This document shows, piece by piece, positions 4,323 to 33,073 of a stretch of DNA of 64,000 bases. The translations under genes and the position numbers were made by a program. Source of the DNA: a virus (taxonomy: Duplodnaviria; Caudoviricetes); the IMG/VR virus record IMGVR_UViG_3300032305_001732, positions 12,585 through 76,584 of that record, one strand, 5' to 3'. Below the pieces are notes generated by a model. The model worked only from the letters and a program-made list of their open reading frames with translations. It had not been told where the DNA came from and did not search any database. Every line of letters starts with the position of its first letter. Position 1 is the stretch's first letter.

Positions 4323-5567
4323 ATGCCGCAGCCTACTACACCCAACCTGAGCGTCGACACCGCTAGCCAATTAGCGAAAGCAGAGCCGGGCATTACCAAT
4401 AAAGAGCCCGGATTTGCTAATACTTATGGCCCCGGCACGAGCTCTCCTGGCGGTATTCTTGCGGCTAGTCTTCCTGCCCTCGGGGTTGGCGGGCTGAGCT
4501 TGTTGATGATGTACAGGCGTTATCTGCAAGACCAGGAAGACCAGAAGAAGCAATTAAAACAGGCTGACTTTACATCCCAGCTACCAGGGCTCCATCCTAA
4601 AGACATGCTCTTGGGTGCAGCTTTGGGCGGAGGCGCTGGGTTGCTTTATGACACAGTCCGCGGCCAGCCAGCCGGCAAGCGCTTATCTACGACGCTTAAG
4701 CGCGTTCTTACTGGCGCGGGAGTCGGAGCTGTTGGGGCAAATGTCGCTGGTGACAGAGCTCGCAGGTATATAACAAACTCTGCGCTCCCTTTCGGCTATG
4801 ACCAAGAGGGTATGCTATCTCAGTTGGCCCCAAGATCAGTAAAGCACGTGTATGACGCGCTGATTGCTGATAAGCCTAGCTATGACCCCAAGGTTGTAGC
4901 GGGTTTAAAAGACAGTTTTAGCGGAGATGCAGCCGCCTTCGACACCGCTATTGCCGCGAGATATGAATTGGGCAGACGTGCTCTAGGCGTGCATACCAAT
5001 AACGCCATCAAAGATTTCTGGCAAAAAAACAAAGGCACTGCTGGCCCGGATTATTACTCAGTGAACGAGAAAAATCCTGCGTACTCTAAGAACGTATTGA
5101 ATCTATATCGCACTTCGGCACCAGACGGAGCGATGCCAAACGGGCGTGAAACCGTTAATTCTTACAATACATCTCCGGGCGCTTGGCGCATGTCCGACGC
5201 TCTGGGCGCGAACACGTTACTGGGCGAGCAGCAAGTCGTTGTAGACGCTAATGGCCAAGGTCGTGTGGTTGATCGCTATGACGTCACCCCTGCCAAGAAA
5301 GATACAGATAAGTTTGTAAATGCTGTTATGAGTGGTGACGTGCTTAGACCAGGCTGGCACAGAAAGCCCCTTAATGACGCCGGGGTCTACGACAAAGACA
5401 AGACGAATCAGACATGGCTCACGAGTCTATTGGGGCGCATGTTCTGGGATAAAGTGCTGACAGAAGAACATCCTTGGGTCAGTCAGCGTTTCCAATTTAC
5501 ACCCGACCAGACCACCGGCATGAGCAACCTTGAGTTCCTGCGCGAGTCTGGCAAACCTAGCACGTAG
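4323..5567 (+). CDS. Putative internal virion (ejection) protein with glycine zippers
   Basis: Three GxxxG helices (LGVGGL, LGAALGGGAG, TGAGVGAVGA); LKQA motif after the first; no Cys in 414 aa. Confidence 0.55.
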   Translation: MPQPTTPNLSVDTASQLAKAEPGITNKEPGFANTYGPGTSSPGGILAASLPALGVGGLSLLMMYRRYLQDQEDQKKQLKQADFTSQLPGLHPKDMLLGAALGGGAGLLYDTVRGQPAGKRLSTTLKRVLTGAGVGAVGANVAGDRARRYITNSALPFGYDQEGMLSQLAPRSVKHVYDALIADKPSYDPKVVAGLKDSFSGDAAAFDTAIAARYELGRRALGVHTNNAIKDFWQKNKGTAGPDYYSVNEKNPAYSKNVLNLYRTSAPDGAMPNGRETVNSYNTSPGAWRMSDALGANTLLGEQQVVVDANGQGRVVDRYDVTPAKKDTDKFVNAVMSGDVLRPGWHRKPLNDAGVYDKDKTNQTWLTSLLGRMFWDKVLTEEHPWVSQRFQFTPDQTTGMSNLEFLRESGKPST

Positions 5568-6416: not shown

Positions 6417-8300
6417 ATGGCTAACAAGAAGATCTCAGAGTTTGTTACTGCTGCGGCTGTCGGTTCAAGCGTTGTTCCTGTATCAAACGCTGCCGGTACA
6501 GTCACGAATAAAGTCACGCTGGAATCTATTGCAGCTCTTGGCGGTGGTGCTCCTGCTGACGGGACTGTAGCTACCGCAAAGCTGGCTAATAGCGCGGTGA
6601 CGTACGCTAAGCTGCAGAACGTCTCGGCTACAGATAGGTTACTCGGCCGGGCTACAACTGGCGCAGGAGTTGTTGAAGAAATTCCGTGCACTGTATTTGG
6701 CCGGTCGCTTTTAGCCGCCACTACAGCTGCCGCGGCAAAGACGACATTAGCTTTAGCTGCTGTGGCTACGTCTGGCGCTTACAGTGATTTAACTGGTGTG
6801 CCAGACCCGCTGTTAAAGACGGGCGGGACGATCACCGGTAATCTGTTTGTAAACGGCGCTGTTATTGGCGCTGGTGCCCGTTCCGCTTTTGCCGCTAATA
6901 ACGAACAGTACGCGCTTGGTGCCCGTTTCGCTCCAGCTGGCGGCGTTGTGTACTTCGGCGCCACGAATGCCACAACTACGCCGGACGTGGCTATCAGTAA
7001 TGCAGGTGGCGCGACATTGATGTTGCTGCAAACCGGCGGCAACGTAGGCATCGGCACAAATAGCCCTACTCAAAGATTAGACGTCAACGGCACCATTACA
7101 GCCACTAAAAGCATAGCGCCATTTGATGTAAGCGCCAGAAGCTACGTGCGTGAGTGGATTGAGCTGCCTAACTTTACGGGTTTGTTGTCTGCTAATAACA
7201 GCGCGTACTTCCGGCCTAATGATGGCGCTTATGGCGGTTGGAAATTCTCTGGCACTCGCAATGGCTGGGCTGGTATTGAGTTTAGCGAGAGCGGCACGTC
7301 TTTAATGCAGGATGCTACTGGCGAGACATCAGGTTTTCACCGAAATGGCTACGGCTGGCAGTTTTACTGGCAAAACGGAGAGCTGCGTTGTTTTAAAAAT
7401 CGTTACGGCGGCGGCACAAACGCCACGGTGCTCGACAGTGTCAATTATGGAAATTACGTATCGAGCGGCACAAACACAATGGGCGGTCGTTTAACGATCA
7501 CAAGCAATACACCGGTTGCGTATGCAGACGCTACCAGCAGCACAATTTATTACACGCCGCACACGTCAAATTATATTTCTCTTTATGACACGGTGGCTGC
7601 GCGTTGGGTGTTGTACCCGTTCACAGAAGTGAGTTTAAGCGTTGCCGCCCTTGCCGCTAACGTTAACTACGACGTGTTTATTCGCAGAAACGGTGCTAGT
7701 TTTGCGCTTGAGACGCTTGCTTGGACATCAGACACAGCTAGGACAGTAAACAGTTTAACTCTAACGGCTAGCCGGGCGTATGTGAGAACTAGTGATAACT
7801 CACAGCGCTATATTGGCACAATTCGTACGTCGGCTGCGGGCACTATAGCTGACACAGAGTCGTTGCGCTATGTGTGGAACATGGATAACCGCGTTAAACG
7901 TTTAGCGCACGCTGACAATAACGTGACGCACACATACGCTGGTGCAAATGCTACTTATAGACCTTGGCGTAATTTGTCGGCTACGTCTGCGCTCGGTTTG
8001 TCTCGTGTGCAGTTTATTACAGGTATGGCGGAAGATCTCGTGCGCTCAGACTGGTATGCCAATACTATGACATCTGGCGGCGCTGGACTTTCTCCGGCAT
8101 TGGATAGCCGTACAGCGCCTGTGGGCCTTCTTTACGCTGGCATCCCAGGCCCCACATCGCAGGTGCAGTTAGCCGCAGCAGCCACCGTTACATGGAATCC
8201 GTTGTTGGGGTATCATTTCGTCGAGATTCTGCAGGGCACACCTACTGGCGCCAGCGGCACATATTACAGCGTATCATTTAACGTAGAAATTTTTAGCTAG
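6417..8300 (+). CDS. Tail fibre protein
   Basis: N-terminal KKISE anchor motif, VTYAKLQNVSATDRLLGR and GNVGIGTNSPTQRLDVNG fibre motifs; rich in Thr, Ala and Gly. Confidence 0.8.
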   Translation: MANKKISEFVTAAAVGSSVVPVSNAAGTVTNKVTLESIAALGGGAPADGTVATAKLANSAVTYAKLQNVSATDRLLGRATTGAGVVEEIPCTVFGRSLLAATTAAAAKTTLALAAVATSGAYSDLTGVPDPLLKTGGTITGNLFVNGAVIGAGARSAFAANNEQYALGARFAPAGGVVYFGATNATTTPDVAISNAGGATLMLLQTGGNVGIGTNSPTQRLDVNGTITATKSIAPFDVSARSYVREWIELPNFTGLLSANNSAYFRPNDGAYGGWKFSGTRNGWAGIEFSESGTSLMQDATGETSGFHRNGYGWQFYWQNGELRCFKNRYGGGTNATVLDSVNYGNYVSSGTNTMGGRLTITSNTPVAYADATSSTIYYTPHTSNYISLYDTVAARWVLYPFTEVSLSVAALAANVNYDVFIRRNGASFALETLAWTSDTARTVNSLTLTASRAYVRTSDNSQRYIGTIRTSAAGTIADTESLRYVWNMDNRVKRLAHADNNVTHTYAGANATYRPWRNLSATSALGLSRVQFITGMAEDLVRSDWYANTMTSGGAGLSPALDSRTAPVGLLYAGIPGPTSQVQLAAAATVTWNPLLGYHFVEILQGTPTGASGTYYSVSFNVEIFS

Positions 8301-8322
8301 TACTTGATTGAAGGTTATCAAT

Positions 8323-9021
8323 ATGGCTGACGATATTGCGCTCGAACTTCCGCTTGATCCTGCCCCGCTGCCGCCGGAGGTAGATACGCCTACGATTGCC
8401 CCAGTTGAGTCGTCATCGTCCGCAGAGTTTGTTGACACCGCGACTGCCGATATTGCAAACGCGCCTGAAGTTGTGCCACTTGCTGGTGTCGTTGTTGCCG
8501 CACCTGTTGTTCCTGTGCCGACATTGCTGCCGCCGGTTGATCCAATACTTGCCGACGACATGCAAACGCTGCATGCCGCAATCCAGGCAATAACTCCAAT
8601 TACCGGTTTGTCTATCATTAATGACGTGCCCAGTGAGATTGGCTACATCACACCGCCGACGGCTGAGCAGGAAGTGCAAATTGCTGAAGTCATTAGCGGC
8701 TGGGATAACCTGCGGGCTAAAAATGCCCAGCTGCGTGAAATTGAAAATAACTGGCAAACAACTATTGCAGCCGGCTGGCCCACGCCGTATGGCTGGAAAC
8801 TGGGGCTTACTCCGCAGGATATCACGCTCCTTACCGGTGCTTTTATTTTGGCGAAAGAGGCCCAAACAATGGGCCTTGCGAGCTCTGGCGTGATTGTGGA
8901 CACGGACGGGCTTGCGCATGAGTTGTCTGTGGCTGATTTAACAGGGCTTATGCTGCAATATGGCCAGGCGCGTGCAGCTCTTTCTGCTGCCTATGCCGCG
9001 TCAAAGGCTGCTCTTGGTTAA
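8323..9021 (+). CDS. Tail fibre-associated (assembly/chaperone-like) protein
   Basis: Directly follows the fibre gene. Acidic Pro-rich N-terminus; C-terminal helical domain (I.D.DG..H.LSVADLTGLMLQYG) resembles DUF4376-type fibre accessory proteins. Confidence 0.5.
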   Translation: MADDIALELPLDPAPLPPEVDTPTIAPVESSSSAEFVDTATADIANAPEVVPLAGVVVAAPVVPVPTLLPPVDPILADDMQTLHAAIQAITPITGLSIINDVPSEIGYITPPTAEQEVQIAEVISGWDNLRAKNAQLREIENNWQTTIAAGWPTPYGWKLGLTPQDITLLTGAFILAKEAQTMGLASSGVIVDTDGLAHELSVADLTGLMLQYGQARAALSAAYAASKAALG

Positions 9022-9065
9022 AATAGCTTTACGGCAGTATTCCTGGCTATAAAGGCTATTGATTC

Positions 9066-11681
9066 ATGAGTGAGCCTGAAGACGACATCACAGACTTAGA
9101 CATTCAGGCGAGCGCTGCTGGGGCCGCGTGGGCGAAGCTGGCTGCTGAATTTAAGCCGGACTACACACCAGAGCAGCTTGAGAACTTGGGTGTATATGAC
9201 GCGTTGTATCGCGGCCAGGGCCCCAGATTAGCCAGCCTAGGCGAGTGGAAGCCTGAATGGGTGTCTGAGCACGACCCGAAAGGCTGGGCGCAGTGGTATA
9301 AGCGCTACACATCTGGCCGGCGTATTCCTGAAGAAGACGAACGACAAATTAAGCGCTGGGCTAGCTTTAAAGCCCGTCATGGCAGCTCTTTCACTAAGAA
9401 CCCGACACCCCGTAGAGGCTGGGCGCTACGTAATTGGGGAATTGACCCCGCCACGTTAGTCGAGCCCGCGGAGCAGCAGGGCGTCACCGAAATGCTGGAC
9501 GAGTATCAGCGCAAAGCTATGCAGAAGCATATTGCAGAGAAGCAATCCGCGCTGCTCCCTGAAGTAAACCTCCAGCCGCACCAAGAGCGCATTCAAGACA
9601 CAGCGCTTGAAGAAAACCCGCGCATGCTGGTGTATCACGGGCTTGGTTCTGGTAAATCTTTATCGGCTATTGCCGCTGCGGAAGCCGCTAAGCAGAAATA
9701 CAACGACGACTACGGAATCGTTGCCCCGGCCAGTCTGCGGGGTAACTTTCAGAAAGAAGTTGAGAAGTTTACCGAAGACAGCAAGCCAGAAATTCTTTCA
9801 TACACCGGGCTTGGTCTTGGCAAAGACTTTAAAAAGCAGCCCGACACCGTGATCATGGACGAGGCTCACAGACTTCGGAATCCTGGCGGGTCTGCTGCGC
9901 AAGCGGCTAAGACAGTGGCTGACAGGGCTAAGCGTGTGCTGCTCCTTACCGGCAGCCCCATCACGAATTCACCCAGCGACCTTGCAAACTTAATCTCAAT
10001 CGTCGCCAAGCAGAATATCACACCGAATGACTTTGAGAAGAAGTTCGTTGGGCAGAAGACAGTGCATCCCGGGATATTCAATTATCTTGCTGGCGTAAAG
10101 CCTGGTGTGCGCCCTGTAATCAAGAATGAGGGCGAGCTGCGCAAGCTTCTCGAGGGCCGCGTTGACTATCAGCCCAGTAAGACGCCTGAAGGCGTGAATG
10201 TTAACGAAGAGAAGATCCAAGTACCGTTAACAAGCGCGCAGCAGAAAATACAAAAAGCACTGCGTACGCAAATTCCGCCGAGCTTCCTCTGGAAGCTTGA
10301 TAAAGAGTTCCCGCTTAGCAAAGACGAACTGTCAAAGCTCAATAGCTTTCTGACGGGCTTGCGGCAGAACTCTGTGTCTACTCGGCCTTTCCGCCAAGAC
10401 TCGGACGCTATCTCTGCGTTTAATCAGTCAGGGAAGCTGCAGGAAGCGTACAAGCGGCTCAAGGAACTTATTGACTCGGACCCGCGCAAAAAAGCGATTA
10501 TCTACTCGAATCACATTGGTGCAGGTATTGAGCCGTATGCCGCCGCGCTTGATAAGAACAGAATACCCTATGGTGTATTCCATGGCGGTATTCCCACCCG
10601 CGTGCGGCAGCAGTCACTTAAAGACTACAACGAGGGCAAGCTCCGGGCGCTTTTAATTGGCCCGGCTGGCGCTGAAGGTTTGTCTACTAAGGGTACGAAC
10701 TTAATCCAGCTTTTAGACCCGCACTGGCACGAGTCACGAACACAGCAGGCGCGTGGCCGTGGGCTGCGCTTTGACAGCCACGATGACCTGCCGGAAGAGC
10801 TAAAGAACGTAGCTGTGCAGCGGTTTATCTCCAAGTCTGAAGAGCCTAGCTTCCTTGGTAAACTTATGGGTTATCGCCGCGAACGTACTGGAGACGAGAT
10901 CTTGGAACGCCTGTCAAACGAAAAAGAAGTATTTAACGAGCGTTTTCGTGATTTGCTCCGGGAGATTGGCTCACGTAACCACGACAAAACCGCATTTGAA
11001 TTAGGCCCGAAGCCTGAGCCCAAATTCGTGCAGGATGGTAAGTGGACACGTTTAGCCGGCACGCCGAAAGCTCCACCACAGGAAGCGCCAAAACCGCTGA
11101 GCCCTATGCCCGGGTCGCTGATGGCGAATAATGTCGAAATTAAACCGCGGCCGCAAATGGTGGCTGCTGGCATGCAGACACCTGAAGACCTTATCCGCAC
11201 AGGCGTTAAAAAGGTAACGGGTTACGACATACCAGCTTTAAGTTACTGCGGCCCGGGTAAAAATTTTGGGCAGGTGGCGTCGTTGGTAGGCATGGGCCAA
11301 GACATGTGGAACAACGGCTTTATGAAAAAGGTAAATGCGGATCTCTCGGCATTCGGCAAAGAAGCCGGTTTTCGCTGGTACAAGCGGTTCCCTGTAAACG
11401 ACAACGTAGCCGTGAACATGAGCCTTGGCGGGCCTTCTGTGACGTTTAAGAAGCTTATCCCTGGTACAAGCTTTACTTTGGGTAATAGAGCGCCTCGTTT
11501 ATATGTCGGAACGCCCGTACCGGGCGTAGCGTATCAGCAATACCTGTCGCCTAAAAAGCACAAAATCACGGCGGAAAAGGAATTTAAAGATTCGCCGGAG
11601 GATGAGAAAGACCAGCGCACGACATACGAGAAGATCCGAGACTTCTTGTTTGGCTCTGAGTATGGCCCCGACGCCGAGTAA
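9066..11681 (+). CDS. Multidomain protein: small N-terminal domain + SF2/SNF2-like helicase (poxvirus D6/D11-like) + C-terminal segments
   Basis: Motifs HGLGSGKS (I), DEAH (II), LLLTGSP (III), GAEGLSTKG (V) and QARGRGLRFDSH (VI). N-terminal GWAQWYKRY..GRR...D.RQIKRW domain. K-x-A/S sites at the domain joints. Confidence 0.85.
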   Translation: MSEPEDDITDLDIQASAAGAAWAKLAAEFKPDYTPEQLENLGVYDALYRGQGPRLASLGEWKPEWVSEHDPKGWAQWYKRYTSGRRIPEEDERQIKRWASFKARHGSSFTKNPTPRRGWALRNWGIDPATLVEPAEQQGVTEMLDEYQRKAMQKHIAEKQSALLPEVNLQPHQERIQDTALEENPRMLVYHGLGSGKSLSAIAAAEAAKQKYNDDYGIVAPASLRGNFQKEVEKFTEDSKPEILSYTGLGLGKDFKKQPDTVIMDEAHRLRNPGGSAAQAAKTVADRAKRVLLLTGSPITNSPSDLANLISIVAKQNITPNDFEKKFVGQKTVHPGIFNYLAGVKPGVRPVIKNEGELRKLLEGRVDYQPSKTPEGVNVNEEKIQVPLTSAQQKIQKALRTQIPPSFLWKLDKEFPLSKDELSKLNSFLTGLRQNSVSTRPFRQDSDAISAFNQSGKLQEAYKRLKELIDSDPRKKAIIYSNHIGAGIEPYAAALDKNRIPYGVFHGGIPTRVRQQSLKDYNEGKLRALLIGPAGAEGLSTKGTNLIQLLDPHWHESRTQQARGRGLRFDSHDDLPEELKNVAVQRFISKSEEPSFLGKLMGYRRERTGDEILERLSNEKEVFNERFRDLLREIGSRNHDKTAFELGPKPEPKFVQDGKWTRLAGTPKAPPQEAPKPLSPMPGSLMANNVEIKPRPQMVAAGMQTPEDLIRTGVKKVTGYDIPALSYCGPGKNFGQVASLVGMGQDMWNNGFMKKVNADLSAFGKEAGFRWYKRFPVNDNVAVNMSLGGPSVTFKKLIPGTSFTLGNRAPRLYVGTPVPGVAYQQYLSPKKHKITAEKEFKDSPEDEKDQRTTYEKIRDFLFGSEYGPDAE

Positions 11682-11736
11682 CCTGTATGCTTAGGTTGCG
11701 ATATAACCGGCAGGAGGCCACCCGAGGAGCCAAGGA

Positions 11737-12087
11737 ATGGCAGCCAATTTCACTAATTACCGGAAGCTCGTCTCTGTATTAAAAAAGCACGTCCCGCCGG
11801 CGTTTCCTATCTCTATTCGGCGTGTGCAGCTCCCCAAGCATATCGAAGGGCGTTGCTGGAAACACGGCAAGACGTTTATTATTGAGATCGACAAGTCTCT
11901 CGATCCGGCCCGCGCTATTGATGTGTTAATTCACGAGTGGGCGCATGCGCGAGCGTGGAATCACATGCTCGATGAGGCCCAAACGGATGAGGCTTTTAAT
12001 AAGCTCGCCCACGACGCTGCGTGGGGTGTAGCATATGCTGAGGTATACGCTAAATACGAGCAGAATTTCGCGCAGGCCGTACTATGA
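11737..12087 (+). CDS. HExxH zinc metallopeptidase-like protein (IrrE/SprT-like)
   Basis: EGRC...FIIEID...VLIHEWAHA. Confidence 0.65.
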   Translation: MAANFTNYRKLVSVLKKHVPPAFPISIRRVQLPKHIEGRCWKHGKTFIIEIDKSLDPARAIDVLIHEWAHARAWNHMLDEAQTDEAFNKLAHDAAWGVAYAEVYAKYEQNFAQAVL

Positions 12088-12332
12088 CCGAATTTAACTG
12101 GGCAACCGCCGCACTAATTTTTATAACGTACGTCCTGATTGATATCTTATACGCGTGGTACATTATCGCGGTCGGTAAGCGCCAGGAAATACAGGCGTCT
12201 GTGGCTAGTTCGCTGTTGTATAGTCTTTCGGCTTATGGCGTGATCACGTATTCCCGAAATATCACGTATATTGCTTTTTTGGCTGCCGGCGCATTTCTAG
12301 GCACGTACATTATCGTAAAGCTCAAGAAATGA
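12084..12332 (+). CDS. Small membrane protein
   Basis: Three hydrophobic segments; ATGA overlap with the upstream stop. Confidence 0.65.
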   Translation: MTEFNWATAALIFITYVLIDILYAWYIIAVGKRQEIQASVASSLLYSLSAYGVITYSRNITYIAFLAAGAFLGTYIIVKLKK

Positions 12333-12556
12333 GCCAGCCGTTATCCCGGGAGGTATTACTGGCACACGGCAGGTGTTGCGGCGGAAGATGCCAAAATTGC
12401 CCGTATATCCCCAGGCATATTGGCGGCAGTAAGCAGATTCAGCCAGTGTGTTTTGTGTGCCAAGGCGAACTGCAGGAAATACGCGGAAAACTGATCTGCA
12501 AAGAGTGCCACACGATTAACGAAACATGCTGTGACGGCGGGCAGTGCGCTACATAA
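12329..12556 (+). CDS. Small Cys-rich zinc-binding protein (DUF5522-like CCG..C..CPY + zinc ribbon)
   Basis: GRCCGGRCQNCPY followed by CFVC...CKEC...CCDG. Confidence 0.65.
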   Translation: MSQPLSREVLLAHGRCCGGRCQNCPYIPRHIGGSKQIQPVCFVCQGELQEIRGKLICKECHTINETCCDGGQCAT

Positions 12557-12689
12557 GCCGCATAGAAAATGGCTATTCTGTACAATAAAGCGACGGTATT
12601 CGGTCTTGTTTTTGCTGAATCCCCGTTGGCGGCTTGTTATTGATTTGATATGCTGAGACTACATTCCGCACATTATGGAGATTTACACT

Positions 12690-13256
12690 ATGTTCGTATC
12701 TGACGTCCAGGTATTGCGCCGGTTTACCAAGAAGCTCGCTTCGGTTGAGATGAAGGATCCGGCGGCTATGTCGGCGGCCGAGCGCACCGAATTCAACAAA
12801 ACCATGACGAAGCAGCAACCGCCCGATCTTACTGATAAGGTAAACATGGGCGCGCGCGCTGCCGGTTCTGCTGTATCCGGCGCCGCTAATAAGGGACTTG
12901 AGGGCATTACTGGCGCAGCTAAGTCGCTGTACAACAATGCCACGCCTACAAACCTTGGTTTGGCTGCAGCTGGCGCGGGATTAGGCGGCGGGGCCCTTTA
13001 CGGCCTTTCGCGCTTGCTGCAGTCCGATGAAGAAAAGAAGAAGAAAACGCCCATCATGGCTCCGGCTCTTGGGGCTGTAGGCGGCGCGGCCTTGTTGCCG
13101 ATCATTGCGGCTCTGATGTCTCGCGGTGAGGCGAAGCCGATTAACATGGACGGCTTTAATACTTCAAACGGTCCAGCAAATTATGCCGATGCTGTAGCCC
13201 ACGCGAGCGGCCCGGCGATGGTTGGCACACCGACCACGTCGACTTATCCTAAGTAA
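12690..13256 (+). CDS. Putative internal virion protein with glycine zippers
   Basis: GGAG SD; leader ending KKLAS; AAAGAGLGGGALYGL followed by EEKKKK; no Cys. Confidence 0.55.
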   Translation: MFVSDVQVLRRFTKKLASVEMKDPAAMSAAERTEFNKTMTKQQPPDLTDKVNMGARAAGSAVSGAANKGLEGITGAAKSLYNNATPTNLGLAAAGAGLGGGALYGLSRLLQSDEEKKKKTPIMAPALGAVGGAALLPIIAALMSRGEAKPINMDGFNTSNGPANYADAVAHASGPAMVGTPTTSTYPK

Positions 13257-13581: not shown

Positions 13582-14013
13582 GTGGCTGCGCCTGCTAAGA
13601 AGTTTGTCCTGAATGCTGAACAGCGCGTATACGTAGAGAAGTCTTGGGGTTACGAAGATTGGATTTGGAACGGGCGGTACTGCGGCAAAAAGTTGTTCAT
13701 TGAAAAAGGCAAAGAGTGCAGCTTTCATTATCATAAAGTCAAAGACGAGGTAATGTATCTCGAGCGCGGTAAGGTGCTGCTGACGTACGGCTGGGATTCA
13801 GACCCAGAGTTTGCGGCGCAGCTCACGCTCACTCCTGACATGGCTTTCCACATTCCTCCGGGCATGTGGCACCGTTTCAAGGGACTCGAGGAATCCATGC
13901 TTTTCGAGTTCAGCACCCACCACTCAGACAAGGACGTCGTGAGGTTGGGTGATAAAGAAGCCAAGGACGGCGCTGATGACGAAACAGACGAAGATAGCGA
14001 CGAAAATTCTTGA
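13582..14013 (+). CDS. Cupin-domain protein (mannose-6-phosphate isomerase / sugar isomerase-like)
   Basis: YCGKKL...SFHYHKVKDE and IPPGMWHRF cupin metal motifs; EFST.H.D.D. Confidence 0.8.
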   Translation: MAAPAKKFVLNAEQRVYVEKSWGYEDWIWNGRYCGKKLFIEKGKECSFHYHKVKDEVMYLERGKVLLTYGWDSDPEFAAQLTLTPDMAFHIPPGMWHRFKGLEESMLFEFSTHHSDKDVVRLGDKEAKDGADDETDEDSDENS

Positions 14014-16006
14014 GCGCGCTTACGCGCGCGAGTTAATTAAAGCAGCGGTCGGGCAGAATGACTTTGGCGTCGGGTCATATACGCCGCCGGGCCAGCCAAA
14101 GCCGATGAATTCGGGTATCACGCCCGCTGGCCGCGCATTAGCTGCTGCCCCGGCGGCTATCGGCAACGCAGTCGATGGCGCAGGTAGCGGTATATACGGC
14201 GGCTTTAATGCTGCCCTCGGCGCTCCGTTAAGCGGCATTGCTCGCGCTGGTCAGGGCATAGCGCACACTAATCACGTGCTCAATAATGACCCGCAGGCTC
14301 AAAATGCTTCAGCGGTCTGGGGTGCTGCAGCAAAGTCGCTTTGGTCAAACACAGTAGCCGGCGGTAAAGATTTACTCGAGGCTCCGTCACGCATGCTTGG
14401 CGCGCTTGACGGGCCCACGCATATGCAGACATTGCAAGCGCAGCAGGGCGCGCAGCTTAGTCCCGGCCAGCGGGATGTGTTTAATTTCGCTAATAATGCT
14501 GCGCAGAACGCTTCTACAGCTTTAGTTGCGGCTCCCGCATTTGGCGCTGTGGCAAAAGCTGTACCGCGGGCGGATAAAGCGCTGCAGTTGTACGCTTCTG
14601 GCGACGTCGCTCTCCGCAGCTTCGGCGTCGGCACGCCGGAGGTAAATCAAATTATAGCGAATACGATAGGCATGGGTAATCAGGCTCAAGCTGCAGAACC
14701 GCAAACCGCACCACAACCAGCGCCAGAGCCTACAGATGTTAACTATGATCAGCTGTCGACCGCTTTAAACAGCTTTCACCCTGAAATGCAAGACGCTGCC
14801 AACGAATTTGTGGCTGAGAATAACGCAGATCAAACAGAAGTAGCGCAAGATGCCGCTGCGACCCCAGCACAACAAGTTGCTGGTCCTGTTCCACCTCCGC
14901 CTACCGAACAGCCGGCGCCAGAACAGCAATCTGAAGCGGCTACGGATTACGCGGCTTTGACGCCTGCAAAGTGGTCGCTTCCTCCTAATGCCACCCCCGC
15001 GCAACAAAAAACAGTTGAGTACGCCACAAATACAATTAACGCTGCTCCGCCGCCTGTGCAGAAAGCTGTTAGTGATCTTGCAACTGATTCAACAAACGCA
15101 GAAGCAAAAGCGACTGTAGACGCCGCAGCTACTGAAAACATTGTGAGGTCCGTTACAGCGGATCCAGCTGCTACGGCAAACGGCGCTACAAATTTTGGCG
15201 AGCTTATTGGCGCCAAAATGGAGTGGTACAACAACCAAGACCCGCATACGCAGGGCTTGCTGGCGCTTGGGCTGTCTGCCGGCGTTATTGGACTTATTTC
15301 AGCTATTAATGGCGGCGGCTTGGGTAGTTTTCTTTCAATGGCGCTTGGTTTAGGCGGCGCTGGGCTTTTGGGCGCCGCAAGCGGCGCATTTGGCGAAGAC
15401 GGACAGCGCGCGATGGGGCAGGGCATGGCGTCAGTTGGGCGCATGATGGGGATGGATGTTCCTACGGATCCAGTACCTGTAGATCGGCTTGTGGGTGAAA
15501 ACGCTCCAGCGGCTATTCACGCTGACGTTATGAAATCTGCCCCGACCGACAAAGAAAAAATGCAGCTGCTCACTAACAAGACAATGCGAGACACTAAAGC
15601 GCAAAGCATACGCGCGGAACTGAAGCAACTAGACAGAGCAAAACAAATTGCGGGGATGCCGGAGCAAGCTGCAGTGCCTGTGCTTATGGCATTAGGTCAG
15701 GCGCAGGGCAAACCACTAACGACTGAAGTTGCTAAACAGGTTTATCGTAATGCTGTGCAAACCGCGCAAATGGCTAACGATAAAGACAGCCCTATGGGTA
15801 AGCAACTTGCTGAGGCGCAGCAGTTTTCTACAGATGCGGATAAATACGTAGCGCAGCAAGCTGGTAACTACATTGCACCATACGTAGCCCCTGCAGCGCC
15901 ATATGTGAATAAAGCTATACCTTATGTAAATCAAGCCTCGCAATATGCGGATCAAGCCTCGCAATTTCTTGCTCCATTTTTTCCCAAGGTGAATAATGCT
16001 AGATAA
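13976..16006 (+). CDS. Large Ala/Gln/Pro-rich putative internal virion (ejection) protein
   Basis: Leader ending LIKAA; a long Gly-rich hydrophobic segment (GLLALGLSAGVIG...LGLGGAGLLGAASG); no Cys in about 680 aa. Start codon uncertain. Confidence 0.55.
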   Translation: MTKQTKIATKILERAYARELIKAAVGQNDFGVGSYTPPGQPKPMNSGITPAGRALAAAPAAIGNAVDGAGSGIYGGFNAALGAPLSGIARAGQGIAHTNHVLNNDPQAQNASAVWGAAAKSLWSNTVAGGKDLLEAPSRMLGALDGPTHMQTLQAQQGAQLSPGQRDVFNFANNAAQNASTALVAAPAFGAVAKAVPRADKALQLYASGDVALRSFGVGTPEVNQIIANTIGMGNQAQAAEPQTAPQPAPEPTDVNYDQLSTALNSFHPEMQDAANEFVAENNADQTEVAQDAAATPAQQVAGPVPPPPTEQPAPEQQSEAATDYAALTPAKWSLPPNATPAQQKTVEYATNTINAAPPPVQKAVSDLATDSTNAEAKATVDAAATENIVRSVTADPAATANGATNFGELIGAKMEWYNNQDPHTQGLLALGLSAGVIGLISAINGGGLGSFLSMALGLGGAGLLGAASGAFGEDGQRAMGQGMASVGRMMGMDVPTDPVPVDRLVGENAPAAIHADVMKSAPTDKEKMQLLTNKTMRDTKAQSIRAELKQLDRAKQIAGMPEQAAVPVLMALGQAQGKPLTTEVAKQVYRNAVQTAQMANDKDSPMGKQLAEAQQFSTDADKYVAQQAGNYIAPYVAPAAPYVNKAIPYVNQASQYADQASQFLAPFFPKVNNAR

Positions 16007-16762: not shown

Positions 16763-17485
16763 ATGGCAAAACAGCCCAGCCGCACAGCGAACAAATCAGC
16801 ACGTCGACAGGAACGCAAACAAGCGCGCAAAGACAAACAGGACACGAACGTTTATTCGCCGGTAGAGTTTAAGCCTCGCACAGAATCGCAACGGCACGCC
16901 CTCGAGCTTGTCGCTGATAATGACATGAGTTTCCTTCTCGGATCTGCGGGTTCAGGCAAAACGTTTCTAGCTATGGCTTATGCAATTAATCAGGTGCTGA
17001 CTAAACAGGTAGATAAGATTGTTCTGACGCGGCCTATTGTCGAAGCCGGCGAGAAGCTTGGGTTTCTGCCGGGCACGTTTGGCGATAAGGTAAATCCGTA
17101 CATGCAGCCCCTTTACGACACCATGGAGGTGTTGTTGGGTAAGCAAGGAGCTAAGCGCGAGATTATCAATAAAGCTGTGGTGCTTGCGCCGCTATGTTAT
17201 ATGCGCGGGCGTACATTTAATGATTCAATCTGTATTTTTGACGAGGCGCAAAATGCCACGTACACGCAGCTTAAATTGTTTCTGACGCGTTTTGGGCAAA
17301 ATACGAAGGTTATCGTTACGGGTGATCCAGACCAGAGCGATCTCGTGACAGGCCGCCGAGAAGATTGCGCTTTGACCGAGGTCGTGGACAGGCTTAAAGG
17401 CACGGCGGGTATTGGTATGTATAAGTTTACCCATGCTGACGTCGTGCGCCATCCGCTAGTAGCTGCTGTGTTGCGCAAGCTGTAA
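16763..17485 (+). CDS. phoH: PhoH family ATPase
   Basis: GSAGSGKT, LTRPIVEAGEKLGFLPG, YMRGRT, DEAQN, GDPDQSD and VVRHPLV motifs. Confidence 0.95.
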   Translation: MAKQPSRTANKSARRQERKQARKDKQDTNVYSPVEFKPRTESQRHALELVADNDMSFLLGSAGSGKTFLAMAYAINQVLTKQVDKIVLTRPIVEAGEKLGFLPGTFGDKVNPYMQPLYDTMEVLLGKQGAKREIINKAVVLAPLCYMRGRTFNDSICIFDEAQNATYTQLKLFLTRFGQNTKVIVTGDPDQSDLVTGRREDCALTEVVDRLKGTAGIGMYKFTHADVVRHPLVAAVLRKL

Positions 17486-18126: not shown

Positions 18127-20328
18127 TTGCCCCATACTTATCTGGTGCCAGCTATGCGAACCAAAGATTTAGGCGAATTTTTTTACACGACGTCTCTCAC
18201 GCAGTACGACGTATTGAAGTATTACGTCAACAAGATGTTCACGCCGGCTATGGACGTAGTGGCGTTGCTGCAGCTTATTGCGACGTACAAGCCTAAAACG
18301 TTTTTAGAGATCGGCACAAATCAAGGGCAGACCACACAAATTATCGCAGATAATTTTCCTAATATGCAGATCGTCACGTGCGATCCCGGCGATCAGCTGA
18401 CAGAGGAACAACGCAACGAGCACCAAATAGGTGAGCATTTACCACAGTGGGCAATCGGTGAGCGAGTAGCTGGCTATCCGAATGTGAAAATTATTAAAAA
18501 GTCGTTTGCTGATATCGATTGGGCTGGGCAAACCTTTGATTTTATTTTCATTGACGGCGACCATTCTTACGAAGCTGCGCTGCAAGATAGCTTGTTAGCC
18601 GCTAAGCTTGTAAATCATCCTGGCGTGCTGGCGTGGCACGATGTGGATAACGGCGCAGTTCCTGGCGTAAAAAAAGCGCTTGATGAGCTGACTGAATTAG
18701 CTCCGATTATTCACATTGAAAAATCAATGGTGGGGTATCGCGCTACTTGCCGGAGCACCGACTCGAAACGAGTTTTTACTCAGTTGCACAGAGACGGCGC
18801 TTGGGGTTCTGGCTGCGGCCCGGGCGCAACCTTAGATTTCTGCCAGCCGCTGATTAATTTTTTAGCGCCGCACTTTGAAGAACGGAACGTCAAGACACTA
18901 TGCGATTTAGGCTGCGGCGATTTTCAGTGGCAACCCGCGCTAGTAGCTAGTACCGGGGTTAAATACATTGGTTTAGATTGCATTGACGCACTAATAGAGC
19001 AGAACAGCGCGAAATATCTCCGGCCGGCGTACGAGTTTCGCTCTGTAGACTTTGCCGCAACCCCTGCAGCGCAATTACCAGAAGCAGATGTTTACCTTAT
19101 CAAAGACGTTTTGCAGCACTGGACGTCTGACGACGTAAATCAGTTTTTAGTGGAGCTGCTCATCGCGCGCCCATCGGCTGAAGTGCTTGTCATTAACTGC
19201 GTCAACCAAGAAAACGATAAACGCGACATTCAAACCGGCCAGTTTGAGCCGCTCAACAAAGCACACTATCCGCTAAATGCATTTAATGTCGAGGAGCTGT
19301 TTTCGTTTCACAGCAAAGTTGTTTACAGGATCAGTCCGCTTAAATCAAACGCGCCAATGCCGACTAGTGCGCCGGTTAAATTAAGTGCTGCACCGGTTGT
19401 GCTACCCGAGTTTTCTGCAGCTTTGATGCAGCCTGCCAATGTTGCTGCGTATCGGCCGCTTGTCGAATCTACATCTGCGCAGTGGTTTGCTGATGCTGCG
19501 TCCGCAGCTGCGCTAGTGCCAAAACCCAGCGATATGCGGGGGCGCGGCATTGTTATCTGTGCGGGCAATAATTATCTGCCTGCGGCGTGGGTGAATATCA
19601 AGATGCTGCGATATTTTCACTGCGACTTGCCAGTGGAGATTTGGCATCTTGGTCCAGAAGAAATTCCGGCCCGCGTGCGCCCGGGTTTCGAGGCGCTAGG
19701 CGCCACGTTTATAGACGGCCGCGAAATCCAAAAGACGTTTCCGCATCAACGGCTAAACGGCTGGGAACTTAAAGCTTACGCGCTGCTGCACACAAAGTTT
19801 GCTGAGGTAATGCTTCTTGATGCGGATAACATACCGCTTAAAAATGTCACACGTTTGTTTGATGAGATGTTTTACAAGCAACACGGCGCGTTGTTCTGGC
19901 CGGATCGCGGAACGTGGCCGCCGCATGCCAAGATTTGGGAGTTGACCGGCGTACCGTACAGACCCGAGTGTGAGTTTGAAACCGGGCAGATGGTTGTGGA
20001 TCGGTCACGCTGCTGGCCAGCTGTTGTGATGACTAATTGGATTAATGAAGAGAGCGTCTATTGGTATACGAAGATTCACGGTGACAAAGACACGTTCCGG
20101 CTAGGCTGGCGCGGCACTGGCACACAATACAACGCTATTCCGCACTCGTCGCTGGCGCCGTGGCCATTCTTTTATCAGAAAGACATTACCGGAGACGTGT
20201 TGTTCCAGCACGGCTGCAAATGGGCGGGCAGGCCAGAATCCTGCGAGTTGCAACAACAGTTTACGCCGGAATTTGTGCCGTATTATCCGCAGTGCGTTGG
20301 CTACATCGAAGAGTATTCCAAACTGTAA
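18127..20328 (+). CDS. Fusion: class I SAM methyltransferase (Methyltransf_24-like) + second SAM methyltransferase + GT71 (MNN-type) mannosyltransferase-like domain
   Basis: FLEIGT..G and FIFIDGDHSY; WGSGCGPG, LCDLGCGD and IKDVLQHW; GRGIVICAG, VMLLDADN, LFWPD, ETGQMVVD and HGDKDTFRLGW. Start uncertain. Confidence 0.8.
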   Translation: MPHTYLVPAMRTKDLGEFFYTTSLTQYDVLKYYVNKMFTPAMDVVALLQLIATYKPKTFLEIGTNQGQTTQIIADNFPNMQIVTCDPGDQLTEEQRNEHQIGEHLPQWAIGERVAGYPNVKIIKKSFADIDWAGQTFDFIFIDGDHSYEAALQDSLLAAKLVNHPGVLAWHDVDNGAVPGVKKALDELTELAPIIHIEKSMVGYRATCRSTDSKRVFTQLHRDGAWGSGCGPGATLDFCQPLINFLAPHFEERNVKTLCDLGCGDFQWQPALVASTGVKYIGLDCIDALIEQNSAKYLRPAYEFRSVDFAATPAAQLPEADVYLIKDVLQHWTSDDVNQFLVELLIARPSAEVLVINCVNQENDKRDIQTGQFEPLNKAHYPLNAFNVEELFSFHSKVVYRISPLKSNAPMPTSAPVKLSAAPVVLPEFSAALMQPANVAAYRPLVESTSAQWFADAASAAALVPKPSDMRGRGIVICAGNNYLPAAWVNIKMLRYFHCDLPVEIWHLGPEEIPARVRPGFEALGATFIDGREIQKTFPHQRLNGWELKAYALLHTKFAEVMLLDADNIPLKNVTRLFDEMFYKQHGALFWPDRGTWPPHAKIWELTGVPYRPECEFETGQMVVDRSRCWPAVVMTNWINEESVYWYTKIHGDKDTFRLGWRGTGTQYNAIPHSSLAPWPFFYQKDITGDVLFQHGCKWAGRPESCELQQQFTPEFVPYYPQCVGYIEEYSKL

Positions 20329-26380: not shown

Positions 26381-26404
26381 CAGCCAATTTTGTACAATAA
26401 AAGC

Positions 26405-27421
26405 ATGACAGCAATTTCTTCTAAGACTGCCCTTGCAGAGTGGCAGCAGGTGCCGGCTCGAGTCGCCAGGCTTTTGCCGATGGCGGCTGCGTTGCGTCAT
26501 GCCCACGATAAAGCAGCCGCAGCAACAGGGCTATTGCAGCTGGCCGCTGTCAGCTGGGAGCCGGAAACCGCAAAGGTATTTGTTCATACAGCGCACCCGC
26601 AAACTGAGTACACGAAAAAAGCGTACTCGGACAAATTAGACGGCGAAGTGACATTTTTAACTACAGCGCCATCGACCGAGGCTGTTGTAGTCAAACTTGC
26701 TGAAACGTGGTTCCCGCAGATCGGGGAAGCTTGGCACGGCGCAAATAAAATGGTTGGCGGGCCTACGCCGCTATCAAATGCTATCGTGTCTGGATTAGCG
26801 CTCGGCGGCCTTGGCTATGGCGCAGGCGCACTAGTTGAGAATCTGTTCCCAGAGCGTTACATAGAGCGCGGCCAATTGCGTAAACCGCTTGCCGCGTTAG
26901 GTGGTTTAGGTGGCTTAGGTATTGGCGCAATGAATGCCGACGCGTTGGCGAAAATACCCGAGCTGAATAAAAATTTTTGGCAGGCGTGGTTAATCAACAC
27001 GGATAAAACAAAAATACCGGAACCAGTTAAAGCTGCTAATTTTGCTTTGCACTCAAACATTCGCGCGCCGATAATCAAGGTTGATGCCTTTAATCGCGCT
27101 GTGTGGTCTGATGCTAGCCGCGGCTTTGACCAAACTGGGATTGTTGGCGATGGTGGATTCACAGCGCCGCGAGTCGCCGCCGCTACTACAGGAATTGTTT
27201 CCGGCATAGCGGCACAATCGCGGTCGTCAATTATCAGCCCGGCTCACGTTATAACAGGTTTAGCGTCCGCGGGCGTCGGGTTGGCCACTGCTAGCCTTGC
27301 CGGTAGAACTCTTGGCGCGTTGGCTGGATTAACGCCAAGCGCACAAGAAAAAATACAAGATCTTGGGTTGTGGGGCGGGATGTTGAATGCTGTAATCCCG
27401 CCACTCTTTAGCGGACGTTAA
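26405..27421 (+). CDS. Putative internal virion protein with glycine zippers
   Basis: SKTA, VKLA and VKAA motifs; GLALGGLGYGAG, ALGGLGGLGIG and GVGLATASLAG helices; no Cys. Confidence 0.55.
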   Translation: MTAISSKTALAEWQQVPARVARLLPMAAALRHAHDKAAAATGLLQLAAVSWEPETAKVFVHTAHPQTEYTKKAYSDKLDGEVTFLTTAPSTEAVVVKLAETWFPQIGEAWHGANKMVGGPTPLSNAIVSGLALGGLGYGAGALVENLFPERYIERGQLRKPLAALGGLGGLGIGAMNADALAKIPELNKNFWQAWLINTDKTKIPEPVKAANFALHSNIRAPIIKVDAFNRAVWSDASRGFDQTGIVGDGGFTAPRVAAATTGIVSGIAAQSRSSIISPAHVITGLASAGVGLATASLAGRTLGALAGLTPSAQEKIQDLGLWGGMLNAVIPPLFSGR

Positions 27422-32723: not shown

Positions 32724-33073
32724 GCATTAAAAAATACTACAGTGATCATGGCGGTCCGGCTCACGGCAACGACAGATTGCACTGGCCGGGTACTATGGAC
32801 GGCTACCCTGTACGCGGACAGGGATTACCGCCGGATCTAAAAAAGGAAGAGCTAGAAAATCTTGACCTGCAGCTAGATTTCAAGAGCAAGATGTTTGAGC
32901 TTTGGGATCCGCAGCAAAAGGCTGAGTTTGACGACGTAAACGATAAAATAGTCAACGGCTGGTATCTATTACAGCGTCGCAACGACAACTGGGACGACAC
33001 CAACAAGCATTTTCGCGTCTGGCTCGAGTGGGCGCAGGTTTACGGAATGCTGCCGCCAAAGGCTAAGCCATGA
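32720..33073 (+). CDS. Hypothetical protein
   Basis: GTG start overlapping the upstream stop; ORF fits the operon. Confidence 0.6.
   Translation: MSIKKYYSDHGGPAHGNDRLHWPGTMDGYPVRGQGLPPDLKKEELENLDLQLDFKSKMFELWDPQQKAEFDDVNDKIVNGWYLLQRRNDNWDDTNKHFRVWLEWAQVYGMLPPKAKP

Follow-up and report, generated by a model that had tools for sequence, protein, structure and literature searches.

Poxviruses and other giant viruses carry in their particles an RNA polymerase (RNAP) together with Snf2-like ATPases (NPH-I, VETF) to start their own transcription. An ATPase with motifs of this type is encoded in a stretch of 64,000 nucleotides (hereafter the window) from an uncultured phage with a genome of about 200 kb, where it lies within a long open reading frame (ORF) punctuated by K-x-A/S tripeptides. 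This raises the question of what the protein is, how it is made and with what it acts. The explanation that we favor, with moderate confidence when taken as a whole, is that of a D6/D11-related, RNAP-linked, packaged Snf2 translocase made as a K-x-A/S-joined precursor.

The ORF is a real gene with a modular layout. A sequence-only reading of this DNA had placed it at positions 9066-11681, with 871 codons, and had divided its product into a leader, a domain of about 135 aa, a helicase and tail segments. Position and length were confirmed exactly, and the analysis recovered a 132-aa N domain, a complete Snf2 motor, a variable tail and an end module (Table 1). The helicase had been proposed to start after EKQSA and to end at DKTA; the boundaries of stand-alone orthologues indeed fall within a few residues of aa 162 and aa 636-640. 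The only cysteine of the chain, C728, lies in a tail segment, as had been noted.

Table 1. Features of the helicase ORF and of associated genes in the window
Feature	Position	Strand	Remarks
Whole ORF, 871 aa plus stop	9066..11681	+	Putative modular precursor with Snf2/D11-like ATPase
Leader, aa 1-26, ends AWA-K24-L-A26	9066..9143	+	Joint lineage-specific, weakly supported
N domain, aa 27-158 (DPKGWAQWY..GRR..RQIKRW)	9144..9539	+	All-alpha, pLDDT 92 in predicted model
Joint K159-Q-S161, N domain/motor boundary	9540..9548	+	K159 invariant in 40-sequence alignment; pLDDT <50 at 155-161
Snf2-type/D11-like ATPase motor, aa 162-640	9549..10985	+	Pfam, fold match, extent of stand-alone orthologues
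Motif I (Walker A) GLGSGKS, aa 192-198	9639..9659	+	Common to NCLDV D6/D11-like helicases
Motif II DEAHRLRN, aa 265-272	9858..9881	+	From sequence
Motif VI block W554..Q..GR..R..SH572	10725..10781	+	Aligns with vaccinia NPH-I WNEASLRQIVGRAIRLNSH
Joint K641-T-A643, 3' of motor	10986..10994	+	Motif near helicase end in 63/69 relatives; disordered in model
Variable tail, aa 644-764	10995..11357	+	Mostly disordered; holds the only Cys
Joint K765-E-A767	11358..11366	+	K-x-A kept in 56/57 aligned copies
C-terminal beta-rich module, aa 768-871	11367..11678	+	DUF4236-like, E 0.051
HExxH (HEWAH) protein, 116 aa	11737..12087	+	Weakly SprT-like (Pfam E 0.013); conserved downstream gene
RNAP, beta fused to N-terminal part of beta', 1483 aa	34088..38539	+	No Cys; proposed partner
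RNAP beta', C-terminal part, 619 aa	39508..41367	+	No Cys; proposed partner

The modules flanking the motor are mobile. Alignments of the N domain show invariant W, D, G, R, Q and H columns. The domain also exists in stand-alone and permuted versions, and all of its best 120 longer matches (120/120) are fusions to this helicase. Scans of the query and of the stand-alone and bacterial homologues returned no Pfam family, and the N-domain HMM found no match in Arash-like loci or in RNAP ORFs. Three leads to its identity were discarded: a structural resemblance to the giant-virus domain DUF5824 (Atlas, TM 0.58), which an HMM search of the contig failed to support; the best PDB match, the C-terminal domain of mimivirus R596 (Z 5.6); and the best BFVD match, nameless, at E 3e-3, the last two being too weak to use. 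In relatives, kinase, NUDIX, DUF4269, DUF6321 and DUF4236 modules are inserted or swapped and their order is permuted as well; the variable tail, for instance, may be replaced by DUF6321. DUF4236 matches were obtained for 21 of 40 relatives (best 4e-5), and the module is C-terminal in every relative that has it. A single, weak ART-PolyVal match (E 0.046) was found among the query and 40 relatives.

Pfam recognizes SNF2-rel_dom (39.4 bits against a cut-off of 24.9, over profile positions 127-194 of 290 only) and Helicase_C (48.2 bits, cut-off 23.5) in the motor. The best PHROG is phrog_62 (5e-43), a "DNA helicase" profile with 1881 positions, of which 674-1101 are matched. The SF2 motifs are all present (GLGSGKS, DEAHRLRN, LLLTGSPITN, GAEGLS, QQARGRGLR); the predicted model has two RecA lobes, both with Snf2 helical inserts, and the motor sequence is free of cysteine. 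Comparison of model residues 160-636 with known structures (VIA-align) gave Z 29.3 for INO80 (404 residues aligned, rmsd 3.1), 28.3 for SRCAP, 27.2 for SNF2h and 25.9 for CSB. The CSB/Rad26 and INO80/ISWI motors were the best fold matches overall (Z 25-29, about 400 residues aligned, rmsd 3.1-3.4, helical inserts included). NPH-I and VETF were absent from the best 50 matches listed in either structure search, which is not evidence against kinship. As modelled, the motor is a canonical Snf2 fold, and the ORF product would be a DNA-dependent translocase of the Snf2 superfamily. CSB is itself an RNA-polymerase-bound translocase; these remodellers differ, however, from the ORF motor, being only 18-22% identical to it and having a motif VI of the form WNP..QA.[DE]R..RIGQ rather than one with the R..SH ending.

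Which branch of the Snf2 group the motor belongs to is suggested by its motifs. The canonical crown-Snf2 signatures (motif I GLGKT, motif VI WNP..Q..R..R[IV]GQ) are absent; the motor has GLGSGKS and WHE..Q..GR..R..SH instead. Sampled bacterial Snf2 proteins, Rad26 and CSB carry the canonical forms. HGLGSGK and Q..GR..R..SH had been taken by the sequence-only reading as hallmarks of the D6/D11 family. GLGSGKS and WHESRTQQARGRGLRFDSH are both present in the ORF, and the two elements proved to be common to the phage family and to giant-virus D6/D11-type helicases. In comparison sets of limited sampling, retrieved by motif patterns from the query, GLGSGK[ST] occurs in 23 of 23 NCLDV rows and in 18 of 24 phage-family rows (the regular expression did not match the remaining 6). 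Of the 23 NCLDV rows, 20 have a motif VI that ends in W[NH]..Q..GR..R..SH; both this motif I and an SH-type motif VI are missing from the Snf2 proteins sampled from bacteria and phages. The counterpart of motif VI in vaccinia NPH-I is QIVGRAIRLNSH, and the likeness to NPH-I continues beyond it (R..SH..P.E..V.V). Vaccinia NPH-I (D11; 6rfl_Y), the VETF small subunit (D6; 7amv_W) and their giant-virus kin thus share with the phage motor GLGSGK[ST] in motif I, G-EG-[LI] in motif V, and W[NH]E..Q..GR..R..SH followed by P.E..V.V. Unlike these NCLDV helicases, with 4-13 cysteines per core, the phage motor has none and is flanked by modules with K-x-A joints.

Profile scores and the main split of a tree agree with the motifs. 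Outside the phage family, the D6/D11 helicases gave the highest profile scores: against the family HMM, NCLDV proteins scored 142-205 bits, the best cellular proteins at most 128 and other phage Snf2 proteins 106-119 (Orchid 119, Edson 106). Profile-profile alignment (hhalign) gave 558 for family versus NCLDV and 364 for family versus bacterial proteins. Also in favor of the kinship, giant-virus matches from IMG/VR (L037, for example) hit only vaccinia NPH-I, at 5e-40. E. coli RapA scored lowest of all comparators (37.5 bits; 28.9 bits by BLASTP), and no kinship with RapA/HepA was found. In a maximum-likelihood tree, which is unrooted, has long branches and includes neither an outgroup nor eukaryotic Snf2 proteins, a branch supported at 100/100 separates the phage family plus NCLDV from the bacterial and phage Snf2 proteins. 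On this split the family lies on the side of NCLDV and not on that of the sampled bacterial Snf2. Within the same unrooted tree the NCLDV clade is sister to one family member, L031 (96/82), making the phage family paraphyletic rather than a separate clan.

These data could also be produced by an ordinary Snf2 helicase whose D6/D11-like motifs are ancestral SF2 states or the outcome of convergence, the grouping with giant viruses being a sampling or long-branch artefact. Other SF2 families often have G-R in motif VI and G-S-G-K-T in motif I, which counts for this possibility, as do the fold similarity to INO80, ISWI and CSB and the inability of an unrooted three-group tree to show sisterhood. 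When the close-family profile was run against the PDB, SSO1653, Rad5 and Rad26 ranked above NPH-I. Vaccinia NPH-I itself matches at only E 1e-3 to 2e-7. A Pfam scan of the whole protein (E up to 1) did not find the NPH-I C-terminal domain; the C-terminal parts consist of the disordered tail and the DUF4236-like module. Against an ordinary helicase stand the wide margins by which profile and profile-profile scores favor NCLDV, the extension of similarity past motif VI and the grouping of the NCLDV clade with a single family member. On balance we hold this explanation to be somewhat unlikely. The D6/D11-type identity proposed earlier thus finds support in motifs, profile scores and the tree split, and is qualified by the best folds (INO80/ISWI/CSB) and the missing NPH-I C-terminal domain. 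The sequence comparisons suggest that, among the relatives found here, the phage family stands closest to the giant-virus and poxvirus D6/D11 helicases (NPH-I, VETF small subunit). The title of the sequence-only reading hinted at derivation from poxviruses; a shared viral branch fits the data at least as well, and the phage side of that branch is possibly basal.

Among the closest known systems is Gp217 of Salmonella phage Arash, a "DNA helicase" (OQ632216.1; PMC10585845) and a distant homologue of the same family, 32% identical over the whole motor (234 bits) and likewise free of cysteine. Its gene adjoins those of a two-chain beta-beta' RNAP of the same layout as here. Gp217 is a stand-alone 472-aa motor that begins at the start of the helicase core, without N domain, tails or K-x-A joints. 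The present ORF differs in having its motor inside an 871-aa modular chain, encoded 22 kb from the RNAP genes of the window. Gp217 was detected in Arash virions with 38 unique peptides and 1148 spectra, compared to 40 and 1210 for RNAP beta' (PMC10585845). For this homologue, the co-packaging with RNAP that the sequence-only reading had proposed thus has published support. The virion list (PMC10585845) comprises 116 proteins and includes obvious non-structural enzymes, so that carry-over is possible. The helicase gene adjoins phage RNAP genes in many relatives, diverged ones included, and RNAP is present in 7 of 7 IMG/VR records at least 81% complete, as well as in Arash; the complete genome of cyanophage PA-SR01 has the helicase and no such RNAP. 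The motor is devoid of cysteine in 23 of 24 family members, compared to 6.9 cysteines for the core of an NCLDV helicase and 4.0 for that of a bacterial relative; at the cysteine frequency of the window, the probability of finding at most one in 871 aa is 3e-3. By analogy with Arash, the virus particle probably contains the helicase along with the RNA polymerase encoded by the phage itself, and we infer for the helicase a role in transcription. Poxviruses, whose particles contain both such an ATPase and a multisubunit RNA polymerase, offer an analogous setting. A parallel within phages is provided by the phiKZ-like (group 1) jumbo phages, in which an SF2 helicase lies beside, and is co-inherited with, RNAP subunits and has been suggested to act with the polymerase, possibly like RapA (Iyer et al. 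2021, PMC7824862). The same study relates that helicase to Rad25, and no phiKZ-like phage was among the organism names listed for 73 matched phage records (five further names being unlisted).

The immediate neighborhood of the ORF consists of genes for tail-fibre-like and other Cys-free proteins. The HExxH gene occurs 3' of the helicase gene in 10 relatives (named: L004, L005, L007-L011, L015, L022), and its product is possibly linked to the helicase. A promoter and terminator scan of positions 8200-12700 found fewer sites than in shuffled sequences. One could suppose that the ORF encodes a replication, recombination or repair helicase that is not packaged and lies among structural genes by chance. 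Phage Snf2 proteins such as Gordonia phage Orchid gp57 do sit in replication modules, and Snf2 helicases of jumbo phages have been proposed as UvsW substitutes (PMC7824862). The abundance of the homologue in the Arash virion, the purge of cysteine, the tail-fibre-like, Cys-free neighbors, and joints and leaders resembling those of other candidate head cargo of this genome all argue against this idea, which we consider very improbable.

A packaged motor could instead act independently of the RNAP, as an injected anti-defence effector in the manner of P1 DarB, stripping or outrunning host restriction or defence complexes. The ORF product resembles the polyvalent proteins (Iyer et al. 2017, PMC5512222), of which DarB is an example, in its mosaic chain, Snf2-clade ATPase and rapidly swapped modules. 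Polyvalent proteins are presumed to be packaged and injected, proteolytic processing has been proposed for them, and both Snf2-containing members and DarB as a head protein are known (PMC5512222). The best PHROG being a long "DNA helicase" profile (phrog_62), the kinase, NUDIX, DUF4269, DUF6321 and weak ART-PolyVal modules of relatives, the PA-SR01 helicase without RNAP and the distance from the RNAP genes in this window would all suit such an effector. However, the hallmarks of polyvalent proteins (adenine methylase-Snf2 dyad, MPTase, MuF) are absent from the ORF and from a tally of 40 relatives, so that the methylase partner typical of the DarB dyad is missing. Modules are bounded here by a fixed K-x-A/S tripeptide, and no such tag is described for polyvalent proteins (PMC5512222). 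The motor is a member of the D11-like branch and has a genomic link to phage RNAP: the synteny recurs in diverged relatives, spectral counts in the Arash virion are similar to those of RNAP beta', and the nearest non-phage relatives are transcription helicases. An anti-defence cargo seems to us distinctly unlikely.

There remains the question of how the chain is organized. The tripeptides had been proposed to cut it into its modules. As module boundaries they hold at K159, K641 and K765, whose placement is conserved and which all lie in linkers predicted to be disordered by the model; the leader site at K24 is weak, and the total is not above chance, six K-x-[AS] motifs (K at 24, 159, 475, 641, 765 and 841) having been found where shuffling predicts 10.4 +/- 2.8. 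Four of the six sites were used by the sequence-only reading; of the two that it left unmentioned, K475 sits in a buried, invariant core strand (RKKAIIYSN), and the S of the K841 motif is not conserved. At the K24 site, K is found in 19 of 47 sequences and D in 23, and the motif immediately precedes the N domain in only 14 of 64 relatives. AWAK-x-A, the leader element here, is an internal joint in L015 (K509). At the K159 junction, K-x-[AS] is kept in 138 of 146 aligned copies; it occurs within 25 aa past the helicase end in 63 of the 69 relatives that continue, as opposed to 13.5% of random windows. All relatives with an insert between N domain and helicase (31/31) have the motif on both flanks of the insert, and the joint motif persists after module permutation. 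Among 121 relatives, 52% of 33,767 internal BLAST breakpoints, which are not independent events, fall within 4 aa of a motif, compared to 6% expected; control motifs gave 0.6-2.3x. The motor interior is depleted in K-x-[AS] (1.22 seen, 5.91 expected), and this depletion is restricted to the phage family, giant-virus and bacterial relatives lacking it. Finally, 11 of 17 stand-alone orthologues (L012, L016, L018-L020, L024-L026, L028, L029, L031) carry K-x-A/S immediately before their helicase start, where in most of them it closes a short M..F/L-E-K-x-A leader.

We infer from these sequence patterns that the chain is cleaved at the K-x-A/S joints. Alternatively, the tags may stay uncut, as conserved flexible linkers or recombination joints within one intact multidomain chain. 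No prohead protease of Pfam family S78 scored above the cut-off in the contig or in any of five relatives, namely the complete Arash genome and four IMG/VR records with a completeness of at least 99%; S77 likewise gave no match in these genomes, in a search made uninformative by the silence of its positive control. Nor did PHROG and Pfam scans of 30 neighboring ORFs bring to light any family of proteases, portals or capsid proteins. The failure of the protease searches and the unexceptional motif count are in keeping with an intact chain, and transfer without processing has precedents in the N4 virion RNAP and in several polyvalent proteins of plasmids (PMC5512222). Furthermore, K-x-A is not depleted in the RNAP beta-beta' protein (10 seen, 9.1 expected); hence the motif alone cannot suffice for cutting. 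Against mere linkers speak the constancy of K and A/S while x and the flanks vary, a purge of the motor interior confined to the phage family, and K-x-A/S just upstream of many stand-alone motors, the last of these being left unexplained by a linker model. Since the modules can be permuted and are found as separate genes, a covalent link between them is not needed. An uncut chain appears unlikely.

Under the packaged-precursor explanation, the protein would most likely be packed in the capsid and pass into the host alongside DNA and polymerase. The motor would then track along duplex DNA and aid early transcription of the incoming genome, candidate modes of action being promoter clearance, polymerase release or recycling, and the pulling of DNA past obstacles. 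The sub-lineage represented here would make the motor as a beads-on-a-string precursor, with helical domain, variable tail and DUF4236-like end module, and the K-x-A/S tag in the flexible linkers would most likely serve as the recognition site at which a phage (head-maturation) protease sets the modules free.

Koonin et al. (2015, PMC4405056) describe D11-type helicase, RNAP and capping enzyme as a kit that giant viruses have in common with cytoplasmic plasmids; the portion of their account considered here does not say where the helicase came from. It is tempting to speculate, as a rather remote prospect, that the pairing of a particle-borne multisubunit RNAP with a D11-type Snf2 ATPase predates giant viruses. 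The D6/D11 helicases of Nucleocytoviricota, poxviruses and yeast cytoplasmic plasmids would then descend from, or share a direct ancestor with, a phage family already working with a packaged polymerase. In the present phages, such enzymes would also be loaded into the head as K-x-A-tagged polyproteins, cut by a protease of novel type. Whatever its ancestry, the D11-like motor of this large phage family, common in the environment, is paired with a phage polymerase, both being found in the Arash virion. The family offers a bacterial system for studying what such a motor does for a packaged polymerase, and makes the origin of D11-type helicases testable by rooted trees. The K-x-A/S joints, the purged motor interior and the permuted or split variants speak for a polyprotein system for capsid cargo, in which the cut site would be simple and predictable. 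Confirmation of such a system would aid the annotation of mature proteins in many uncultured phages of 150-230 kb.

The contig from which the window was taken (IMG/VR, 76.6 kb) has an estimated completeness of 37%, which would place the phage genome at about 200 kb. The 871-aa protein is matched by the Pfam families SNF2-rel_dom (aa 260-328, 39.4 bits) and Helicase_C (aa 462-569, 48.2 bits) and by phrog_62, annotated 'DNA helicase' in PHROGs (5e-43). An AlphaFold model, built from an alignment of 40 relatives, has high confidence across aa 160-636, with pLDDT below 50 at residues 155-161, 638-707 and 717-772. The single Cys falls in a tail segment, as the sequence-only reading had stated. DUF4236 matches the end module in 21 of 40 relatives (Pfam, best 4e-5).

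Helicase ORF, its modules and the RNA polymerase (RNAP) genes
Feature	Position	Strand	Remarks
Helicase ORF	9066-11681	+	871 aa
Leader	aa 1-26	+	module of the 871-aa protein
N domain	aa 27-158	+	all-helical; pLDDT 92 in model of domain alone
Motor	aa 162-640	+	between N domain and variable tail
Variable tail	aa 644-764	+	disordered; sole Cys of protein, C728
End module	aa 768-871	+	beta-rich, weakly DUF4236-like (E 0.051 in query)
RNAP beta fused to front of beta'	34088-38539	+	first chain of two-chain multisubunit RNAP, 1483 aa
RNAP rest of beta'	39508-41367	+	second chain, 619 aa

As modelled, the fold is that of a canonical Snf2 motor, most similar to INO80 (Z 29.3, 404 residues, rmsd 3.1) and then to SRCAP, SNF2h, ISW1 and CSB (Z about 26). 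Sequence comparison with the PDB returned Rad26/CSB, SSO1653, Rad5, NPH-I and VETFs, all within a narrow range of 27-39 bits. The second lobe alone best matched vaccinia NPH-I, and both have G-EG-[LI]-S, W[HN]E, Q..GR..R..SH and, after the last of these, P.E..V.V; the canonical WNP..QARER..RIG stands in its place in Rad26 and CSB. A scan of IMG/VR ranked the phage family first and giant-virus MAG proteins next; one of the latter (L037) matches NPH-I only (5e-40) and another (L043) NPH-I (1e-14) and VETFs (1e-4). The family HMM gave 142-205 bits with giant-virus proteins, 119 with Gordonia phage Orchid gp57, 106 with Bacillus phage Edson and 37.5 with E. coli RapA; the best scores among 185,579 bacterial and archaeal genomes were 128, 109 and 99 bits, all others being below 92. 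With comparison sets that were both retrieved using patterns taken from the query, hhalign scored family-NCLDV at 558, family-bacterial at 364 and NCLDV-bacterial at 218, and GLGSGK[ST] of motif I and the SH with which motif VI ends, named earlier as hallmarks of the poxvirus D6/D11 helicases, were common to the family and the giant viruses (NCLDV) and missing from the bacterial set.

A maximum-likelihood tree (66 rows, 501 columns, LG+C20; unrooted, with long branches, pattern-retrieved comparison sets and no eukaryotic Snf2) separated the family, NCLDV and a single row from an archaeal MAG from bacterial Snf2, Orchid, Edson and RapA with support 100/100, in line with the viral kinship first read from the sequence. 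Within it, the NCLDV clade adjoins the family member L031 (96/82). The latter (L031:9992-11416), 475 aa long and containing a single Cys, is a helicase of phage style assigned to a giant-virus bin (G009); a sequence assigned to a Methanobacteriota MAG (L117) falls within the NCLDV clade on a very long branch. We consider it fairly probable that, within the Snf2 superfamily, these phage helicases are part of a viral branch of D11-like type. A D11-like helicase is placed within the giant-virus/cytoplasmic-plasmid kit in a published account (PMC4405056). Family helicases (473-677 bits with the family HMM; 0, 4 and 0 Cys) also occur in bacterial MAG bins, on L091 (173,992 bp, bin Desulfatibacillum), L089 and L090, which are probably mis-binned phage contigs.

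The K-x-A/S sites that had been proposed to divide the protein are non-random in position, as judged from conservation, breakpoints and insert flanks, and not in number. The ORF contains six such sites against 10.4 +/- 2.8 expected from shuffles, thus no excess over chance. Two of them had been left out of the earlier account: K475, within the buried invariant strand RKKAIIYSN, and K841, where the following S is not conserved. At the joints, K159 is invariant, with the motif retained in 138/146 aligned copies, and K765-x-A is kept in 56/57; the motif lies within 25 residues of the helicase end in 63 of the 69 relatives extending beyond it, versus 13.5% of random windows. Support for K24, the leader site, is weaker: among 47 relatives 19 have K at this position and 23 have D, and only 14/64 relatives have a motif upstream of the N domain; its AWAK-x-A element recurs as an internal joint in the relative L015. 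All-against-all BLAST of 121 relatives placed 52% of internal alignment ends, which are not independent events, within 4 residues of K-x-[AS], versus 6% expected; twelve control motifs gave 0.6-2.3 times expectation. Where 40-490 aa are inserted between N domain and motor (31 relatives), the motif is always present both at the N-domain end and immediately ahead of the motor's LLPEV start. In these flanks K and A/S are fixed, x and the surroundings vary, and recurrent insert modules start straight after the motif. Three relatives (L009, L010, L090) have a permuted order (P-loop kinase, motor, N domain) with the motif still at both joints (K-S-A, K-L-S), and the 854-aa chain of L009:9446-12007 contains only four K-x-[AS] in total.

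Stand-alone orthologues, such as Gp217 of Salmonella phage Arash, start and end a few residues from aa 162 and 636-640; therefore the helicase span first proposed, from EKQSA to DKTA, was correct. In 11/17 of these the motif lies just upstream of the motor, mostly closing a short M..F/L-E-K-x-A leader. Inside the motor it is depleted in the close family (1.22 seen versus 5.91 expected) and the Arash-like branch (3.33 versus 7.19), and not in giant-virus (8.39 versus 7.98) or bacterial relatives (2.58 versus 2.54). Taken together, joint conservation, breakpoints, insert flanks, permutation, interior depletion and upstream leaders are typical of sites recognised by a protease, at which the chain may be cut. 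Counting against cutting, a search for Pfam S77/S78 found no protease in the contig or five relatives, and the RNAP is not depleted in K-x-A/S.

Stand-alone N-domain proteins also exist, on contigs equal in extent to those bearing N-less helicases, their putative neighbours. Distant homologues of this kind (P0152-P0158; 167-174 aa, 34-39% identity, from bacterial assemblies, in one case from a Saccharibacteria MAG contig of 706 kb) keep the invariant W/GRR/RQIKRW/RH residues, contain Cys and match no Pfam family. At the other extreme, a 226-kb IMG/VR record has a 2977-aa open frame (L014:2531-11461) with GEKRADLLP ahead of a motor at its extreme C-terminus, the RNAP beta gene coming next; this is an extreme polyprotein form.

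In Arash, L017/L018, L023 and L025 the helicase gene comes immediately after the gene for the C-terminal part of beta'; in L012 it is flanked by that gene and the conserved gene that follows, and in L014 and L026-L029 it is near the RNAP genes. The RNAP is present in Arash and in 7/7 IMG/VR records at least 81% complete; the complete cyanophage PA-SR01 is without it. In the close family the helicase gene is no longer in the RNAP operon, and a trio of genes, the first encoding a 116-aa HExxH protein, is conserved downstream of it. Purified Arash particles, whose list of 116 proteins may include carry-over according to its authors, contained Gp217 (38 unique peptides, 1148 spectra) and the beta' protein Gp216 (40 and 1210) (PMC10585845). 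The motor has no Cys in 23/24 family members, versus 4-13 per core in giant-virus relatives. Cys is likewise missing from both RNAP chains and from several ORFs close by; the Cys-free subset in the window includes 4323-5567, 8308-9021, 12675-13256, 13949-16006, 26390-27421, 33070-34062, 34088-41367 and 55841-56398, other ORFs having up to 15.

The trio (11737-12556; same position in close relatives) encodes proteins of 116 aa (HEWAH; a zincin with weak similarity to SprT, E 0.013), 82 aa (membrane-like) and 75 aa (rich in Cys). Lying beside a tagged polyprotein, the zincin is a candidate processing enzyme; nothing links it to the K-x-A motif. K-x-A is strongly enriched in ORFs 49877-51199 (14 versus 4.5 expected, z 5.0), 52507-53985 (16 versus 4.5, z 6.0) and 41443-43848 (10 versus 4.1, z 3.2), which have no Pfam or PHROG match and resemble head proteins of a scaffold-like or multi-cut kind. 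K-x-[AS] occurs in the first 35 residues of 18/42 plus-strand ORFs versus about 11 expected (P 0.017), including the Cys-free RNAP flankers at 33070 (MNKNEKQA) and 38552 (RFTKAA), and in neither RNAP chain over that interval. Elsewhere, a 733-aa protein with 15 Cys (18127-20328) combines two methyltransferase domains and a mannosyltransferase-like domain, near a PhoH gene (16763-17485).

A RapA-like role has been suggested for the RNAP-linked SF2 helicase of phiKZ-like phages (PMC7824862), and Snf2 motors, which translocate along duplex DNA without unwinding it, are also borne by polyvalent cargo proteins (PMC5512222). Our search found no literature combining NPH-I, Snf2, phage, RNA polymerase and virion. 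We infer that the 871-aa protein is packaged, cut and in contact with the polymerase. Most economically, a particle-borne translocase would assist the injected polymerase on the incoming genome; in this phage it would be made as a tagged precursor, whose modules a head protease would release.
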